Shown piece after piece: positions 11,998 through 20,383 of a DNA stretch of 64,000 nucleotides. The stretch is from an uncultured Clostridium sp. (GTDB lineage Bacteria > Bacillota > Clostridia > TANB77 > CAG-508), in assembly GCA_948434985.1 (NCBI GenBank), contig CAOJFV010000002.1, positions 17,873-81,872 of the forward strand, in the 5' to 3' direction. The notes under the pieces were generated by a model. It was not told the origin of the DNA and made no database searches. It saw only the letters and a list, made by a program, of their open reading frames with translations. A program made the translations under genes and the position numbers. Numbering within the stretch: the first letter of the stretch is position 1; each line of letters begins with the position of its first letter.

Positions 11998-13357
11998 TTA
12001 TTTTAAGCCCACTTTCCTCATAGCATCATTTATATCAGTTACGCCTATTATATCTAATTTGTAGTTTTCTTTCAATAGTTTTTTGTTACTTTCTGGAATT
12101 ATGCAACATTTAAACCCTAATTTTTCAGCTTCTTTTATTCTTTTTTCGATTAAATTAACACTTCTTATTTCTCCTGTTAAACCAACTTCTCCAATTGCAA
12201 CATATCCATTTGGTATTGGCTTATTTTTATAACTTGATGCTGCTGAAAGTACTACTGCTAAATCTATTGCTGGTTCATTTAGTTTTATTCCTCCAACTAC
12301 ATTTATATATACATCTTGGTTTCCAAGTGGTAATCCTACTTTCTTTTCTAATACTGCAATTAACACTGTTAACCTGTTATAATCCATTCCATTTGCTGTT
12401 CTTCTTGGCATACCAAATACACTCCCGAGTTGTTAAACTTTGTATTTCTATTAATAATGGTCTCGTTCCTTCCATTGTTGCAACAATAATTGAACCTGAA
12501 GGATTATCTTCTCTTTCAGAAATTAGAATAGAAGATGGATTAGTAATTTCTACCATTCCTTTATCTTGCATTTCAAACATTCCAATTTCGTTTGTTGAAC
12601 CAAATCTATTTTTTACTCCTCTTAATATTCTATATGAAAAATATCTTTCTCCTTCTAAATATAAAACTGTATCTACCATATGTTCTAGAACTCTTGGACC
12701 TGCAATATTTCCATCCTTAGTAACATGTCCTATAATTATTGTAGTAACCCCTTTTTCTTTACAAATCCTCATTATTTTAGCAGTTATTTCTCGAACTTGA
12801 CTAACACTTCCTGGTGCAGATGTAATTTCATCTGAATACATAGTTTGAATTGAATCTATTATTACTAGTTTTGGATTTATTTTTAAAATTGCTTCTTCTA
12901 TTAAACTAATATCTGTTTCTCCTAAGAATAGAATATCTTTATTATTTATTCCAAGCCTATCTGCTCTTATTTTTATTTGTTCTGCTGACTCTTCTCCTGA
13001 AACATATAATACACTACCTTCTCCTTTTATTTTGTCACAAATTTGTAGAATTAGAGTAGATTTTCCAATTCCAGGTTCTCCTCCAAGCAAAACTAATGAT
13101 CCATTAACAATTCCTCCACCTAAAACTCTATCAAGTTCCAAAAAACCAGTAGAATTTCTTATAACATCTTTTCCTTCTAATTCATTTAAAACAGTTGGTA
13201 TTACATCTTTTTTCTTTTCATATTTTGTTCCAGTAGATTTTACAAGTTTTTCTTCATAAAAACTATTCCATTCATTACACCCTGGACACTTTCCCATCCA
13301 TTTTGGTGATTCATATCCACAATTACTACATACAAATACAGTTTTATCCTTAGCCAT
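11998..13357 (-). CDS. radA: DNA repair protein RadA/Sms; frame interrupted at an in-frame CGG
   Basis: Zinc ribbon CSNCGYESPKWMGKCPGCNEW, Walker A GGEPGIGKST, and Lon-like C-terminus in a second ORF. ACT CGG GAG (plus 12425-12427): skipping the C gives ...IEIQSLTTGSVFGMPRRTANGMDYNR..., the conserved RadA sequence. Confidence 0.9.
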
Positions 13358-13514
13358 TAAACTTCTCCTTTACTACTATTACAATTTATATAGAATAAAA
13401 TTTTTTATTAACATTATAATATATTTAGAAAATAGGAAGCCACAAAATGTGGTTGCCAAATGTTAAATTATTTTAAGCCCATTTTCCACTGGTATGCAGA
13501 AATGGGCTGTTTTT

Positions 13515-13631
13515 TTATTCTTTGCACATCATTATAACTATTGCAATAATTAAGGCAACTGTAATGATAGTCATTGCACCAAGTGCAATTAGAAGTAATA
13601 TTATTAATTGAAATAATGCTTGTTCTATCAT
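13515..13631 (-). CDS. Hypothetical 38-aa hydrophobic peptide
   Basis: MIEQALFQLIILLLIALGAMTIITVALIIAIVIMMCKE. Lies between 12-bp inverted repeats atgtggttgcca/tggcaaccacat. Weak RBS. Low confidence. Confidence 0.2.
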   Translation of the reverse strand: MIEQALFQLIILLLIALGAMTIITVALIIAIVIMMCKE

Positions 13632-13798
13632 ACACGCCATCTCTTATCATATGTATAAAAGATGGCAACCACATTCTGCTCTTTTTAATTTCAAAATGAT
13701 TATATAAGTTGTAATACAAAATGTCAATAGATTTCAAAAAATACACAAACATTTTTTCGCAAGCAGTTATAGATAAAATTTCAAAACTGGAAGAACCA

Positions 13799-14293
13799 TT
13801 AAAGGCTCTTCCAGTTTTGAAAATGAGACATTATTTCTGTAAACAGGTAAATAAGAAAGCAAATCATATTGAAAATAGATTTTTCACACGCTACTACAAC
13901 TATAGTAATCTCGCCTATCCATAACGTATCAGTAATAAACCTTACAATAGTTAAATTATCGTTTATTGTATAATATATTCTTCCACCTTCCATTCTAAAT
14001 TTCATTGTTATTTTTATAAAGGGATTACTATCTAAATATAAAATAACTTTAGATCTTTTGCTTTCACAAACATAATCCTTTATATCTATTTGGCTTACTT
14101 TCTCTTGAATTTCGGCTTCATATTTTCTAAAGTTAATGTTTGTTCTATATAAAAACAAAAGTACAAACAATAAATCTATGATTACTATTATTATTCTTCT
14201 TATTCTGTTTTTATATTTTGTCATATACTGCATACAACATTTTTGTCTTTCCTCCCATGTTCTTCTTACTTTAGTTCCTTTTCTCCGTCTCAT
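13799..14293 (-). CDS. Hypothetical membrane-anchored protein
   Basis: Strong RBS AAGGAGG 7 nt before the ATG. Basic N-terminus MRRRKG (the third codon is an in-frame CGG read as Arg), then a TM helix. Confidence 0.5.
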   Translation of the reverse strand: MRRRKGTKVRRTWEERQKCCMQYMTKYKNRIRRIIIVIIDLLFVLLFLYRTNINFRKYEAEIQEKVSQIDIKDYVCESKRSKVILYLDSNPFIKITMKFRMEGGRIYYTINDNLTIVRFITDTLWIGEITIVVVACEKSIFNMICFLIYLFTEIMSHFQNWKSL

Positions 14294-14419: not shown

Positions 14420-16375
14420 TTATTTTTCCATTAATTTCTCTAACACTAAAATAAACATCGCATGGCTCCAACCAAGTCCTATTACCCAGTTTGCTTCCAT
14501 AGTATTATTATCTACTTGTTCTGCTAAAAAGCCATGTTTTGTACTAGAGTTTACTACAAAATTAAAGCATTCTTTTGCTTCTTTGAATTTTTTAACTTCT
14601 ATGTAGTATAATGCCATCCAAAGTGTTGCAATTACCCAAGGATTACCATCTCTATAATGGTCATCTTCAAATCTTTTATATCCTCCTGTATAAGTACGTA
14701 AAGTTAAATTTATTTTTTCTACAGTATTTAAAACTTTCTTTTCTTTGCTTGTGAACATATTAAATGGAATAATTGCGCCTAATATGCTTATATCCATCAA
14801 TTTATCTTCTATATTTCTCACAAAAGTTTTTGAAGTTTCATCATATAAATTTGCAAGTACATATTTTTTCATTATTTCTAATTGTTTTTGGATTATTCTT
14901 TTATGTCTTATTATACTTTCTTGTTTTAGTCTAATTCCCGCACCATTAGTATCTTTTTCCACTACTTCATATATTTTAAGCATAGCCTCGTACGCTGCAT
15001 ATATACTTGCTATCGAATAAAAACTTACTCCTTCGTGCATTTCCCATAAATCGTAACTAACTGGTATTTTTTCTATTTTATCTTTATAGTCTTCTTCTAG
15101 TTCTTTTTTTACAAGATCCTCTTCTTCATGTATATCCATAACTTGTGCAATATATTTTTCTAAAAAATGCACTGCTTTTTCACACATCTTGAAGGTATCT
15201 TTTAAAAACTTTTCATTTTTTGTTTTTTCATAATGATTATATACTCCATAAACAACACTTGCTGTTTCATCTATTTGATATCCCCAGCAAGGTGCTAATC
15301 TTCCATCTGTATAAAAACGTTGTTCCCACATTCCCGATTTACTTTGTGTATTTTTACAGAAATTTTTGTAAAATTTCTCTGTTTCTTTTTCCATATTTAA
15401 AATATCTAATGCCTTTGTAATAAATACAGCATCTCTTGGCCAACAATAAGAATATCTACCACAAGTAGTTAAATCTTCATCTATTTCTACACTTGCTGAA
15501 ATTCCACCTGTTGTATCATTTGCAAGAAGTGGATATAGTAATATTGTTCTTGCATATATGTTCTTTATTTTTCTTTCCCCTTCTGTTTTATCTTTTAGTT
15601 CTATTGTAGTATGATCCTTTACATATCTATTCCAATATTTTTTTGTATTTGTAAGCTCTTTATCAAAATCAATTTTCCTTATCTTTTCTACTTCATTTTC
15701 AATTTCGTCCATTTTATAATTTTCGTTATTTTCATTTATCCATATAAATATTTCAAGTGTCTTTTCTTCGTTTGGTTTTATAACCCCAATATCAAAGCTA
15801 ATACTTGAATCATGTGACATTCCTATATAATCTTTATCTCCAATCACACCTGAATGAATGTTACTATCTGTATCATTTATTTGATAACTATATAATTTAG
15901 TTTTTTTAGAAGCTATTGCAACTGAATAATCATGTGCATATTGAATCATTCCTTGTTTTATAACTTTTGCACTTACAAAGTTATTTGCGTCTGAAAGTAG
16001 TTTTGAATGTAATAAAAATTTAACATCTAAATCAATATTATTTTCATTAATAAATTTATATCTTTTAACCAATACATTCTCTTTAATTGGAATAAAATCC
16101 AATTGTTTAATTTTTAAATTAAAATATGTATTTTTAATTTCTGTATTTAATATGTTAGTATTTTCAGTATAATATTGATTATATTGATTATTAATATCGT
16201 CATGTAAATTTACAAGGCCTGAGTCGTTTATTTTAAGTCCTACATACATATAATCAATAAATTGTCTATAATCTGGTGATTTATAATATAGCCTTAATAA
16301 TTCACCATTTTTAGTGAAACTTGCTACCATTTGTTTATTTCCTATTATTGCATCATTATAATACTTTGTTTTCAT
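14420..16375 (-). CDS. Glycoside hydrolase family 15 (glucoamylase/glucodextranase-like)
   Basis: 651 aa with an N-terminal beta-sandwich and a C-terminal (alpha/alpha)6 region containing CWPRDA, typical of GH15. Confidence 0.75.
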   Translation of the reverse strand: MKTKYYNDAIIGNKQMVASFTKNGELLRLYYKSPDYRQFIDYMYVGLKINDSGLVNLHDDINNQYNQYYTENTNILNTEIKNTYFNLKIKQLDFIPIKENVLVKRYKFINENNIDLDVKFLLHSKLLSDANNFVSAKVIKQGMIQYAHDYSVAIASKKTKLYSYQINDTDSNIHSGVIGDKDYIGMSHDSSISFDIGVIKPNEEKTLEIFIWINENNENYKMDEIENEVEKIRKIDFDKELTNTKKYWNRYVKDHTTIELKDKTEGERKIKNIYARTILLYPLLANDTTGGISASVEIDEDLTTCGRYSYCWPRDAVFITKALDILNMEKETEKFYKNFCKNTQSKSGMWEQRFYTDGRLAPCWGYQIDETASVVYGVYNHYEKTKNEKFLKDTFKMCEKAVHFLEKYIAQVMDIHEEEDLVKKELEEDYKDKIEKIPVSYDLWEMHEGVSFYSIASIYAAYEAMLKIYEVVEKDTNGAGIRLKQESIIRHKRIIQKQLEIMKKYVLANLYDETSKTFVRNIEDKLMDISILGAIIPFNMFTSKEKKVLNTVEKINLTLRTYTGGYKRFEDDHYRDGNPWVIATLWMALYYIEVKKFKEAKECFNFVVNSSTKHGFLAEQVDNNTMEANWVIGLGWSHAMFILVLEKLMEK

Positions 16376-16429
16376 TTCATTTTCTCCTTTTGTATTGACT
16401 TTTATTGGTTTTTATGTTACAATTGTTTT

Positions 16430-16738
16430 ATGAATTTTGTTAGTTCATAGGAATGCACAGCAATAGTATGCTTTTATAGATGCTGTTTGTAAATTCGGTA
16501 AAACTACTAAAACTGCCGTTTCCTTGTGCAAAAACTAAATATCAAAAAGATAGAAAGTTACAATTGTATATGGAACCATTAGTAGATTCTTTTGAAGAAT
16601 CTTATCTCTTACTTTTGGAAAGGTGGAATGCCAACTTTTTGTAACTAAAAATTAAATATGAATATGCGATTTTTTTGCCCAAAATAATGTACTACCTTTC
16701 TATCTTTTCCCCAATCTTTTAAAAGGTTGGGGTTTTTT
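16430..16738 (+). ncRNA. Candidate sRNA A: own sigma-A promoter and intrinsic terminator
   Basis: TTGACT (16395-16400), 17-nt spacer, TACAAT (16418-16423). Terminator ccccaa..ttgggg + TTTTTT at 16709-16738. No conserved ORF. Paralogous to element B. Confidence 0.4.
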
Positions 16739-16867
16739 ACTCTCTTATAATACAATCTGTACTTTTTATACATATTAACTTTTCTATTTATTTCATTATG
16801 TTTTCACTTCTAGATATTTCTTACTCTTTATGTTGACTTCGCATTAATCTTATGTTATAATACTAAT

Positions 16868-17088
16868 ATGAATTGTTCATAGGATTGTGCAGAAGTATAG
16901 AATAACATACTTTAAAGTTGGTGATTAACATTTAAAACCTCATCATTTCCTTGCGCAAAAACTGAATAAAATAAATAGAAAGTAAAATTTAATATGGAAC
17001 TGGTTATATCATTTTGACTTAGAACCTATCAAAATTTTGTCAACAACTTTCTATTTTCCCCCGCTTCCAAGAAGCAGGGTTTTTTTAT
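16868..17088 (+). ncRNA. Candidate sRNA B, a paralogue of A
   Basis: TTGACT (16833-16838), 17-nt spacer, TATAAT (16856-16861). Terminator cccgcttc-caa-gaagc(a)ggg + TTTTTTT at about 17059-17087. Shares blocks gttcatagga.tg..cag and ttccttgYgcaaaaact.aata..atagaaagt with A. Confidence 0.4.
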
Positions 17089-17089
17089 T

Positions 17090-18736
17090 TTATCCCTCTA
17101 AGATTCTTACTATTTGTGCTTCTAATTCTTTTATTTTTTCATTTATAGAAGCTACTTCTACATCTTTTGCTTTTTCTGTAATTATTTCTTCTTTTATAAT
17201 TTCTGTCATATCTTTTACTTCATCTTTTAATTTTTGCATTCTTTCTAGAACTTCTAGTCTTACTGGTTTATATCTTGTTGGAAGTTCTACTTTGTTTGTT
17301 ATTTTTATTTCATCATTTAATTCATAAGTTTCTCCAAAATCTGGTATTGTTACTGGTATTCCTATTGTTTCTAATATTTTTTCTTTTAATACATTTTGGG
17401 ATTCTTCTTCACCATGTACTAAAAAGATATGTTTTGGTTTTTTTATAAAGGAATATATAAAATTTAATAACCATTCTTGGTCTGCATGTCCAGAATATCC
17501 TTCAATATATTCAATTCTAGCATTTACAGATATCTCTTCTCCAAATATTTTTACCTTTTTTTCTCCATTTACAAGTTTACTTCCCAAAGTGCCAGGCGCT
17601 TGATAACCAACAAATAATATTGTACTATTTGGATTCCATAGATTATGTTTTAAATGATGTTTTATACGTCCAACTTCACACATTCCGCTTGCAGATATAA
17701 TTATTGAAGATTTATTAATTTCGTTTAATTCTTTTGACTCTTCTGCTGTTTTTGTAAACTGTAATCCCGGAAATTCTAGTGGATTATCTCCTTTTTCCAT
17801 TTCTTTTTTTACATCATCATCAAATAAGTCCATATTTTCTCTAAATATCTCAGTAGCAGATATTGCAAGAGGACTATCTACAAAAACTGGTACACTCATT
17901 AATGTCTTATATTTTTTTATAAATTCTTCATCATCTGTATTTTCTTTTAATTTGTTTAACTCATATACTATTTCTTGAGTTCTACCTACTGCAAATGAAG
18001 GAATTACTACTGTTCCACCCTTATCTAATGTTTCAGATACTATATTTAAAAACATTTCTGCTTTATCATCATTTCTCATATGTAATCTACTTCCATATGT
18101 AGATTCCATTACTAAGTAATCTGCTGATTCAATCATTGTAGGTGATGCTAACAGTGGAATATCATTATTTCCTAAATCTCCTGTAAATACTGCTTTTTCT
18201 GTTTTTCCATTTTCAGTTGCCCATACTTCTATAATACTAGAACCAAGCATATGACCTGCATCATTAAACCTTACTTTTATGTTTTCATCTATTTCAATTA
18301 TTTCATCGTATTTTACACCTCTAAATAGTTCTAATGATTTAGTTGCCTCTTCAGCTGTATATAATGGTAGTAGTTCTTTTTTTCCTTCTCTTTTTCTTTT
18401 CTTATTTTTCCATTCTATTTCCATTTCTTGAATATGTCCACTATCTGGTAGCATAATAGTACAAAGATCACAAGTTGCCTTTGTTGCATATATTGGATTT
18501 TTATATCCCTCATTGTATAATTTTGGTATTCTTCCTGAATGGTCTATATGTGCATGAGTTAATAGCATAAAATCAATACTTGATGCATCAAATAAAAATG
18601 GGTCTTCATTTTCTTTTTCCTCTGTAGCTTTTCCTTGATACATTCCACAGTCTACTAAGAATTTTTTGCCTACTGCTTCTACTAAGAAATTTGAACCTGT
18701 TACAGTTTTTGCTGCTCCTAAGAATGTTATTTTCAT
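17090..18736 (-). CDS. rnj: Ribonuclease J (metallo-beta-lactamase/beta-CASP)
   Basis: 548 aa. HAHIDHSG motif, beta-CASP and C-terminal domains. Confidence 0.9.
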   Translation of the reverse strand: MKITFLGAAKTVTGSNFLVEAVGKKFLVDCGMYQGKATEEKENEDPFLFDASSIDFMLLTHAHIDHSGRIPKLYNEGYKNPIYATKATCDLCTIMLPDSGHIQEMEIEWKNKKRKREGKKELLPLYTAEEATKSLELFRGVKYDEIIEIDENIKVRFNDAGHMLGSSIIEVWATENGKTEKAVFTGDLGNNDIPLLASPTMIESADYLVMESTYGSRLHMRNDDKAEMFLNIVSETLDKGGTVVIPSFAVGRTQEIVYELNKLKENTDDEEFIKKYKTLMSVPVFVDSPLAISATEIFRENMDLFDDDVKKEMEKGDNPLEFPGLQFTKTAEESKELNEINKSSIIISASGMCEVGRIKHHLKHNLWNPNSTILFVGYQAPGTLGSKLVNGEKKVKIFGEEISVNARIEYIEGYSGHADQEWLLNFIYSFIKKPKHIFLVHGEEESQNVLKEKILETIGIPVTIPDFGETYELNDEIKITNKVELPTRYKPVRLEVLERMQKLKDEVKDMTEIIKEEIITEKAKDVEVASINEKIKELEAQIVRILEG

Positions 18737-18751
18737 ACTAATCCTTCCTTT

Positions 18752-20383
18752 CTAATTATTTTTAAACACTTTTGTAATCTTTTCAAATTTCATTATAACT
18801 TTTTGCTTATCAAACATTGATATATTAATACTTTTTTCAAAAACGTCTCCATCATATATATTTACTTCTAAACTTGCTGCATTTTGTTTTAGCTCAACTC
18901 CTACATTTTCTAAAGAAATAATTTTTGTTTTTAAAATATTCATTATAATTTCATTGTTTGCATCTTCCTCATTGGTTATAGTGTTAAGCACTTTTAAATC
19001 ATATGCTTTTTTTATTATAACCTTCTCTAAACTTTCTAGTTCTTCTTTTAACTCTTTTAAATCTTTTATTTGTTCTATTTCTGTAATATAAATTAAATTA
19101 TAATATCTTAGCATATATAGTAAATTTACTATTTCTTCTTTCTCTTTTGCATTTTCTATTTTTATATAAAAACATTTTATAAATGCTTTCTGTAAATCTA
19201 TTAAATATTTAAATTTGTTTTCTTCTTGATTATTCTTTCCTATATCTTTTAATAATTCTAATTGTTTTTCTAAATTTTCCGTTATTTGTACATAATATTT
19301 TGGCTCTAACAATTTATTATTTTCTTCTATCACTTTAAGTTCTTTGTTTCTTTCTTTACTTAAAATTTCTGTTAAATGACTTATACTAAAAATTTTGTTG
19401 TACTCTGCTCTTTTTTCATTTCTTTTCTCATATTCTTCTTCTAATAATTTTTTATCATTTAATATATTATCTATTTTCTTTATTTTTTTTAATGCTTCTT
19501 TTTTTATAGCAGATATTTCATCTAATAGTTTAAATTTATCTTTTAATCTTCCCAATTCTTTTTCTAAAATTTCTTTTTCATCTAACAAACGTTTTTTCTC
19601 TGCTTCATTTTTCTCAGTACAAATAATGATTGAAATTTTATAAATTTGATTTAGTATTTCCTTTGTATTTTTTTCAGTATAAAACTCCATTAATTTCTCT
19701 TCAGTTAATTTTATATAATCAACCACTTCTTCTGTATGCACTAAGTTTTTTATAAAATCAATTCCCAAAAGATAAACTAAATTTTGATAAATAAGATTTG
19801 TAGTAATTTCTGGAATTTCTCTATTTAAAGTATTCCAATTCCATCCATTAAAATCACGTAATACTTCTATACTATTAATATTTTCTCCTGCATTTAAAAG
19901 ACTTGATAAAGCATTTCTAATTAGATTATATTTTTCATCTAAAAATATTTGTTTATTATCAATTTTGTAAAGTGTATATAAAAGTAAGCTTTCATTTGGA
20001 TACATTAAATAAATTGTATTTTCTAAATGATTTACAAAAAACTTTCTTTTTTCTTCTTCTAATTCTTTTGCTTCATTCGAACCTTCTTCTACAATAATAA
20101 TTTTTTCACATTTTTCTTTAATAATTCTTAAAATGTCTTCAATATAAGTTTTCTTATCCTGAACAATTCTTTTAACTGTTGTATAGTCTTTATAGCCATT
20201 TTCAATCTTATATAACATAGAAAGAAGAAGATTTTTTACATTTACAGAAAAATCCTTATTTTCAAGTATTGTTTCTAGTTGATTATTATAATCTCTAGAA
20301 TTTAATTTTGAAAATAATTTTTCTGTATCCATAACCCTCTTCTCCTTTCCAAAAGCTAAGCTCTTATACTCTTTACTTTTCAC
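18752..20383 (-). CDS. Hypothetical coiled-coil-rich protein, co-oriented upstream of rnj
   Basis: 543 aa, K/E-rich with long predicted coiled coils; no recognisable catalytic motif. Confidence 0.45.
   Translation of the reverse strand: MKSKEYKSLAFGKEKRVMDTEKLFSKLNSRDYNNQLETILENKDFSVNVKNLLLSMLYKIENGYKDYTTVKRIVQDKKTYIEDILRIIKEKCEKIIIVEEGSNEAKELEEEKRKFFVNHLENTIYLMYPNESLLLYTLYKIDNKQIFLDEKYNLIRNALSSLLNAGENINSIEVLRDFNGWNWNTLNREIPEITTNLIYQNLVYLLGIDFIKNLVHTEEVVDYIKLTEEKLMEFYTEKNTKEILNQIYKISIIICTEKNEAEKKRLLDEKEILEKELGRLKDKFKLLDEISAIKKEALKKIKKIDNILNDKKLLEEEYEKRNEKRAEYNKIFSISHLTEILSKERNKELKVIEENNKLLEPKYYVQITENLEKQLELLKDIGKNNQEENKFKYLIDLQKAFIKCFYIKIENAKEKEEIVNLLYMLRYYNLIYITEIEQIKDLKELKEELESLEKVIIKKAYDLKVLNTITNEEDANNEIIMNILKTKIISLENVGVELKQNAASLEVNIYDGDVFEKSINISMFDKQKVIMKFEKITKVFKNN

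Follow-up and report, generated by a model that had tools for sequence, protein, structure and literature searches.

Several classes of regulatory RNA with their own promoters and terminators have been described in bacteria. RoxS/RsaE are stand-alone trans-acting small RNAs of Firmicutes, whereas riboswitch-controlled antisense or trans-acting RNAs include the SAM-riboswitch antisense RNA of the C. acetobutylicum ubiG operon, SreA and SreB of Listeria, and AspocR. Known sponges of the CsrB/RsmZ type carry 5 to 22 GGA sites, and Bacillus has a pair of 6S RNAs, 6S-1 and 6S-2. To our knowledge, almost no regulatory RNAs have been described in uncultured AT-rich gut Clostridia. Here we analyze two tandem units, A and B, in a 64-kb stretch of DNA from this group (hereafter, the window), which are probably paralogous genes encoding a single structured small RNA that had not been described before and is predicted to be regulatory. 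Judging from the available sequences, the small RNA family is narrowly distributed, duplicated in this genome, without a match in Rfam and dispensable in many relatives.

Both units lie on the plus strand in the intergenic gap between the minus-strand ORFs 14420-16375 and 17090-18736 (Table 1). An earlier, sequence-only reading of this DNA had placed them in a 715-bp gap flanked by two minus-strand genes; the genes and the two units are where it put them, and the gap measures 714 nt. The near-consensus promoter and the terminator assigned to each unit were likewise recovered, with two terminators found against 0.2 expected from shuffles. The blocks said to be common to the units are genuine: GTTCATAGGAWTGYRCAG of the 5' block occurs exactly twice in 64 kb (at least two matches were seen in 1 of 100 shuffles), as does TTTCCTTGYGCAAAAACTRAATA of the central block (two matches in none of 100 shuffles). 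Alignment of unit A with unit B over 217 positions gives 65% identity, in agreement with the proposed paralogy. The predicted lengths of about 300 and 220 nt were close (about 309 and 219 nt), whereas the insertion of about 110 nt in unit A turned out to be a net difference of about 90 nt spread over several blocks.

Table 1. Features of the two units, the flanking genes and the orthologous units (positions are those of the window unless a contig is named).
Feature	Position	Strand	Details
GH15/oligosaccharide-amylase-like protein	14420..16375	-	651 aa
Promoter A	16395..16423	+	-35 TTGACT, 17-nt spacer, TG-extended -10 TACAAT; 10/12 matches
RNA A (predicted, long form)	16430..16738	+	about 309 nt; predicted start near 16430; folding z = -3.6
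H1, 5'-terminal hairpin AUGAA/UUCAU	16430..16448	+	starts at predicted +1
5' domain, unit A	16454..16530	+	H2 closes the junction holding hairpins H3 and H4
H2	16454-16460 with 16524-16530	+	closing helix of the junction
H3	16464-16469 / 16480-16485	+	hairpin in the junction
Candidate GH15-directed promoter inside unit A	16465..16493	-	TTTACA-17-CATACT; 9/12, common by chance
H4	16496-16500 / 16514-16518	+	hairpin in the junction
Joining strand UUUCC	16519-16523	+	invariant
H6 5' strand, unit A	16545..16557	+	AAAAGAUAGAAAG; region 94% complementary to 16693-16708
H6 3' strand, unit A	16696..16708	+	CUUUCUAUCUUUU; directly adjoins the terminator
Terminator A	16709..16738	+	10-bp stem, then UUUUUU
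Inter-unit spacer	16739..16832		decayed duplicated junction/unit material weakly suggested
Promoter B	16833..16861	+	TTGACT-17-TATAAT with TG; 11/12; predicted start near 16868
RNA B (predicted, short paralogue)	16868..17086	+	about 219 nt; folding z = -2.6; homology score 105 bits
H6, unit B	16973-16983 with 17046-17056	+	100% complementary
Terminator B	17058..17086	+	4 nt separate its end from the convergent beta-CASP stop codon
Beta-CASP/RMMBL ribonuclease	17090..18736	-	548 aa; Beta-Casp and RMMBL domains; TTHA0252/CPSF/Cas14-like
Orthologous unit, L006	2856-3157		one per genome, corresponding site
Orthologous unit, L014	2626-2940	-	one per genome, corresponding site
Orthologous unit, L088	2604-2942	-	one per genome, corresponding site

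A pattern scan of a genome collection with one genome per species returned seven matches, of which only one was real, namely L006, a metagenome-assembled genome (MAG) of an uncultured Clostridium sp. with a single long-form unit between the GH15 and beta-CASP genes, as in the window. Further relatives were sought through a GH15 homologue search followed by examination of the contigs, which uncovered intact units in L014 (GH15 77% identical) and L088 (81%). Neither nhmmer nor a 5'-domain covariance model detected a further copy in the 64-kb window or in about 98 kb of related loci, and no unit was found in viral contigs, phage records or plasmid records. The motif is also absent from the searched supplements of a human-microbiome structured-RNA catalogue (PMC8040213), and an exact look-up of the window's own GH15 protein gave no record. 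All 62 loci from a metagenome pattern scan were rejected as false, being either chance matches or copies of a conserved protein-coding segment from an unrelated gut bacterium; in about 58 of the metagenome contigs (L017-L078), the degenerate RNA pattern had matched a coding region, GGAATTCCTTGTGATGGC...GATAGAAAGGTATAATATGGAACC, of this abundant organism.

Neither the window nor five related loci contain a match to Rfam 15 at gathering thresholds, and with E values up to 10 on positions 16300-17200 the best match, RsaOG, reached 21.7 bits against a gathering score of 50 and was driven by the terminator. The first suggestion of the sequence-only reading, a duplicated small RNA gene, gains support on several counts, since the units are non-coding, have their own conserved promoter and terminator, have homologues in three other genomes, adopt a covariation-supported structure and match no Rfam family.

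The promoter pattern TTGACT-17-TAnnAT with TG is also found in the three orthologous units, the terminators are strong, with a GC stem and a run of 6-7 U, and the terminator stems of the orthologues carry compensatory changes. Thus, the units have their own promoter and intrinsic terminator, both kept in the orthologues, as expected of an independent small RNA gene, and each is predicted to give rise to a discrete RNA of 220-310 nt from a housekeeping-type (sigma-70-like) promoter. We note that an 11-mer, GTTACAATTGT, makes up the -10 region of promoter A (16416-16426) and recurs inside RNA A (16557-16567), and that a -10-like box, TACAAT/TAAAAT, is kept at this internal position in all homologues.

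In line with the sequence-only reading, the units share no conserved ORF. The 54-aa ORF of unit A is missing from unit B, L006 and L014 (the scan covered these three), and indels in the unit alignments are not multiples of three. Two kinds of mini-ORF were rejected, namely a leaderless MNFxxS at the 5' end and an internal MP(T/I)F, as neither frame nor length is conserved.

The comparisons point to selection on an RNA fold. Both RNAs fold more stably than shuffled sequences (z = -3.6 for A and -2.6 for B). The structure of the 5' domain was defined by hand and scored on an alignment of five sequences (A, B, L006, L014 and L088); with only five distinct sequences, which also served to derive the structure, the statistics on covariation are soft and indicative only. 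In this alignment, 95% of the cells are paired and six pairs are altered on both sides, values reached in none of 500 shuffles, with slid controls being 22-48% paired. The compensatory changes of the 5' domain are located in H2 and H4, whereas all five pairs of H1 are invariant and paired in all five sequences, and hence show no covariation. H6 (GAUAGAAAG / CUUUCUAUC) is a long-range helix of 11-13 bp in which the region following an A-rich linker pairs with the bases just ahead of the terminator. Of its cells 98% are paired, and variation is confined to two positions, both of which covary (G-C to A-U in unit B and L088). The covariation analysis across related genomes that the sequence-only reading had suggested yields compensatory changes in H2, H4 and H6. 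Furthermore, 13 cells with G-U pairs would become A-C mismatches if the opposite strand were folded, indicating that the plus strand is the folded one.

Collectively, the helices are kept through compensatory changes beyond the controls across the five sequences, as expected of a structured RNA, and these changes support a 5' three-way junction and a long-range helix next to the terminator. The modeled fold would begin with a 5' hairpin and continue through the three-way junction with its UUUCC strand and an A-rich linker to a second domain; the helix closing this domain, H6, would stack on the terminator. Unit B retains H1, H2, H3, H4, UUUCC, H6 and the terminator and lacks most of the 3'-domain interior. 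The difference between short and long forms sits in this second-domain interior, where UUACAAUU.AAUAUGGAAC and GGUGGAAUGCC are conserved and where consensus folding gave no supported structure.

The gene to the right of the units had been labeled rnj, a label that does not hold. RNase J models score only about 27-32 bits (31.9 bits for TIGR00649, against a cutoff of 400), and there is no RNase J chain among the PDB matches, so that the identification as RNase J was rejected. The best PDB match of the beta-CASP protein is TTHA0252 of T. thermophilus (E 1.8e-83), followed by type VII CRISPR Cas14 (E 1.5e-65) and then by the archaeal and eukaryotic CPSF group; the NCBIfam model cas14_MBL_CASP gives 444 bits, below its cutoff of 800. 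In several relatives, the beta-CASP gene is broken into 2-3 ORFs (L006:3155-4805, L080:2259-3907 and L083:1364-2921), which in these MAGs are probably assembly frameshifts.

On the minus strand, positions 18752-20383 encode a conserved protein of 524-553 aa that in relatives always lies directly upstream of the beta-CASP gene and has no Pfam, NCBIfam or PDB sequence match, apart from a marginal PADLOC match to MTase_II (E 0.0027). On the other side of the locus, radA/sms (11998-13357, minus strand) is split into ORFs of 326 aa (Zn ribbon and ATPase) and 137 aa (ChlI/Lon_C), whereas in relatives it is a single 452-aa gene; the split is a frameshift, due either to a pseudogene or to a sequencing error. 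Two small minus-strand ORFs (164 and 94 aa; 13468-14293) without family matches separate GH15 from radA, a junction that among relatives holds sigma-factor genes, Spo0A-like genes or nothing. In L088, three ORFs of 201, 253 and 161 aa (L088:744-2533), also without family matches, lie between the beta-CASP gene and the unit; neither Pfam nor PADLOC gave an informative match for these ORFs or for the small ORFs of the window. The beta-CASP/GH15 junction appears to be an insertion hot spot.

An intact unit is missing in nine other lineages (9 of the 13 examined). In eight of these, the gap between the beta-CASP and GH15 genes is 1 nt (L079), 2 nt (L087), 18 nt (L082), 46 nt (L011), 65 nt (L008), 79 nt (L083), 89 nt (L081) or 93 nt (L080), and in L086 the locus is rearranged. 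The short gaps, with the GH15 ribosome-binding site often located inside the end of the upstream gene, suggest that the two genes presumably form an operon. With the two genes presumably co-transcribed in relatives lacking the unit, any read-through from the beta-CASP gene into GH15 in the present genome would be fully complementary to the RNA.

We propose that the RNA acts as a regulator through its conserved unpaired segments, UUCAUAGGA, UUUCCUUG and AAUAUGGAAC, which would bind either mRNAs or a protein in trans. Conservation of the fold and of the invariant unpaired stretches exceeds the demands of an antisense role alone, which is suggestive of such binding. The invariant UUUCC is a short junction strand and may perhaps be unavailable for pairing to a second RNA. 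When duplexes with 57 start regions from the window were folded to predict targets, the structures were implausibly long and the flanking genes were not enriched, and the prediction was discarded as uninformative. The units would also act in cis, with antisense pairing and the convergent promoter uncoupling or lowering GH15 expression.

Against the preferred reading of a trans-acting regulatory RNA stands a purely cis-acting cassette, which would not need a conserved fold. In such a cassette, which we consider unlikely, a strong promoter would be fired against read-through from beta-CASP into GH15, and the units would perhaps also supply a divergent GH15 promoter, so that GH15 would be insulated or repressed through transcriptional interference and antisense pairing, with no function in trans. 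The orientation of the units against the beta-CASP-GH15 operon, together with the gaps of 1-93 nt in relatives without the unit and the overlap of the GH15 ribosome-binding site with the end of the beta-CASP gene, would suit this arrangement, as would a GH15-directed promoter-like site at the homologous position in 3 of the 4 long-form units (A, L088 and L014). An mRNA from this candidate promoter would overlap the first 30 or so nucleotides of RNA A in antisense. However, the site matches at 9 of 12 positions, which is within chance expectation, and is missing in L006, and unit B does not adjoin GH15. The compensatory changes and the strand-specific G-U pairs also point to selection on the RNA fold itself.

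A structured regulatory RNA could also be a sensor, and the sequence-only reading had offered orphan riboswitch-like leaders as its second suggestion. Accordingly, the 5' junction would bind a ligand or factor and modulate the terminator, with read-through yielding antisense RNA across the convergent beta-CASP nuclease gene. Several features would suit this picture: the units possess a multi-helix junction with invariant unpaired nucleotides in its joining strands, H6 directly adjoins the terminator, the terminators of L006, L014 and unit B end at most about 10 nt from the convergent beta-CASP stop codon, and no gene in the same orientation follows. By contrast, no conserved antiterminator partner was seen for either terminator arm, the region before the 3' strand of H6 is variable and the terminators, with their 6-7 U, are strong. 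We therefore take the terminators to be constitutive, which makes the riboswitch-like reading less likely. In addition, no Rfam riboswitch matches even at E values up to 10; what comes after unit A is the spacer and then unit B, and in L088 other genes, rather than directly beta-CASP, come after the unit. A riboswitch or cis-acting leader would be expected to precede a gene in its own orientation, and only a convergent gene or the other unit is found 3' of the units. Thus, we regard a sensor as quite improbable.

The history of the locus can be traced in the relatives. The long-form units are 72-80% identical and follow the same order as the GH15 nucleotide identities (72-83%), whereas four-fold sites are only 42-55% identical, indicating vertical descent under purifying selection. 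At the same time, L014 and L087 share a GH15 gene that is 94% identical, yet the unit is exactly present in the former and exactly absent from the latter. The L014 unit is bracketed by an 11-nt direct repeat, TTTTATTCTCC, which is present as a single copy at the empty L087 site, is degenerate around the other units and consists of the beta-CASP stop codon and the GH15 ribosome-binding site; selection could explain the repeat, as could target-site duplication. Two lineages retain remnants. In L083, the left flank extends to the first bases of the -35 element and is followed by CTTTCTATC and the terminator, corresponding to an internal deletion of about 285 nt, whereas the 3'-truncated remnant of L086 comprises the promoter and the first 75 or so nucleotides, about 95% identical to L014, and then gives way to unrelated DNA. 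The clean absence in L087 and the remnants in L083 and L086 argue that the RNA gene has been lost repeatedly, and its frequent loss, even between genomes with 94% identical GH15 genes, that the RNA is dispensable.

The spacer between the units might preserve traces of the duplication. Its first 20 nt are common to the sequence following the L088 unit (alignment z of about 2.9), and alignment of the spacer to the beta-CASP 3' end and the GH15 5' end is 1.6-2.9 standard deviations above shuffles, so that its origin as a remnant of these two gene ends is tentative. The L088 unit is followed by a stretch of about 20 nt common to the window (TTTTTTACTCTC.TATAAT), which resembles the end of a beta-CASP gene. 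A further spacer segment, CTTTTCTATTTATTTCATTATGTTTT (16781-16804), is 88% complementary to positions 16958-16981 in the linker/H6-5' region of unit B and 70% complementary to the corresponding region of unit A (16541-16570), and may be the decayed 3' strand of H6 from a further copy of the unit. Taken together, the comparisons indicate that one old insertion at the operon junction was passed on vertically under purifying selection, was lost several times and became tandemly duplicated in this genome, and that the ancestor of the clade already carried the gene at the beta-CASP/GH15 junction.

The same pattern of loss might be read as that of a decaying relic or a small mobile insertion without current function, that is, a promoter-terminator cassette inserted with a target-site duplication and now disappearing. 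The 11-nt repeat, which stands on both sides of the L014 unit, once at the empty site of L087 and in degenerate form around the other units, is compatible with this, as is the absence of an intact unit from 9 of 13 lineages, two of them with remnants. However, the identity of the units far exceeds that of four-fold sites and their divergence is congruent with that of the host, the helices carry compensatory changes, the units have no terminal inverted repeats, neither the 64-kb window nor the related loci (about 98 kb) contain another copy, and none was found in phage, plasmid or viral collections; we consider this origin very improbable. Most doubtful of all is a new sensor-like class of structured RNA tied to the adjacent Cas14/CPSF-like beta-CASP ribonuclease, whether as a conditional terminator gating antisense transcription into the nuclease gene or as a partner or decoy of the nuclease.

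A regulatory RNA encoded by units A and B would give the uncultured, AT-rich gut Clostridia a small RNA family with structural support. The analysis also relabels the neighboring gene from RNase J to a TTHA0252/Cas14-like beta-CASP nuclease. The locus provides a clear example of small RNA gene turnover, in which an ancestral insertion at an operon junction was inherited vertically under selection; most lineages then deleted it, some precisely and others in part, and one duplicated it in tandem. Uncoupling of the beta-CASP nuclease gene from the GH15 amylase gene by the RNA, if it occurs, would illustrate how an operon is rewired by a small RNA gene; should the nuclease-linked reading prove true in either form, an RNA-degrading enzyme of gut Clostridia would be under the control of an RNA-based circuit.

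As with Bacillus 6S-1 and 6S-2, a Firmicute carries a pair of paralogous small RNAs with a size of about 200 nt, and the internal TACAAT/TAAAAT box is -10-like; unlike 6S RNA, however, the units do not form a rod with a central bubble, do not match the Rfam 6S model and, in contrast to a housekeeping RNA, have been lost in most relatives. GGA-containing motifs (UAGGAA, AUGGAAC and GGUGGAAUGC) recall the CsrB/RsmZ sponges, but conserved GGA sites number three in the long form and two in unit B and are not consistently in hairpin loops, below the at least five looped motifs expected of a CsrB/RsmZ-like RNA, and there is no Rfam match. With the ubiG antisense RNA, SreA, SreB and AspocR, the units share a promoter, a structured domain, a terminator, the lack of a same-orientation gene 3' and convergence toward a protein gene, whereas known aptamers are unmatched and the antiterminator alternative was not found in the units. 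RoxS/RsaE differ from the units in having no similarity to them in sequence or by covariance model; the units are larger (220-310 nt) and contain a three-way junction, and in place of a loop, a 5-nt strand of the junction would serve as the candidate seed. Nevertheless, the units resemble RoxS/RsaE in having their own sigma-A promoter, an intrinsic terminator, no ORF and a narrow phylogenetic range, as well as a conserved, unpaired C/U-rich stretch with the potential to base-pair to ribosome-binding sites.
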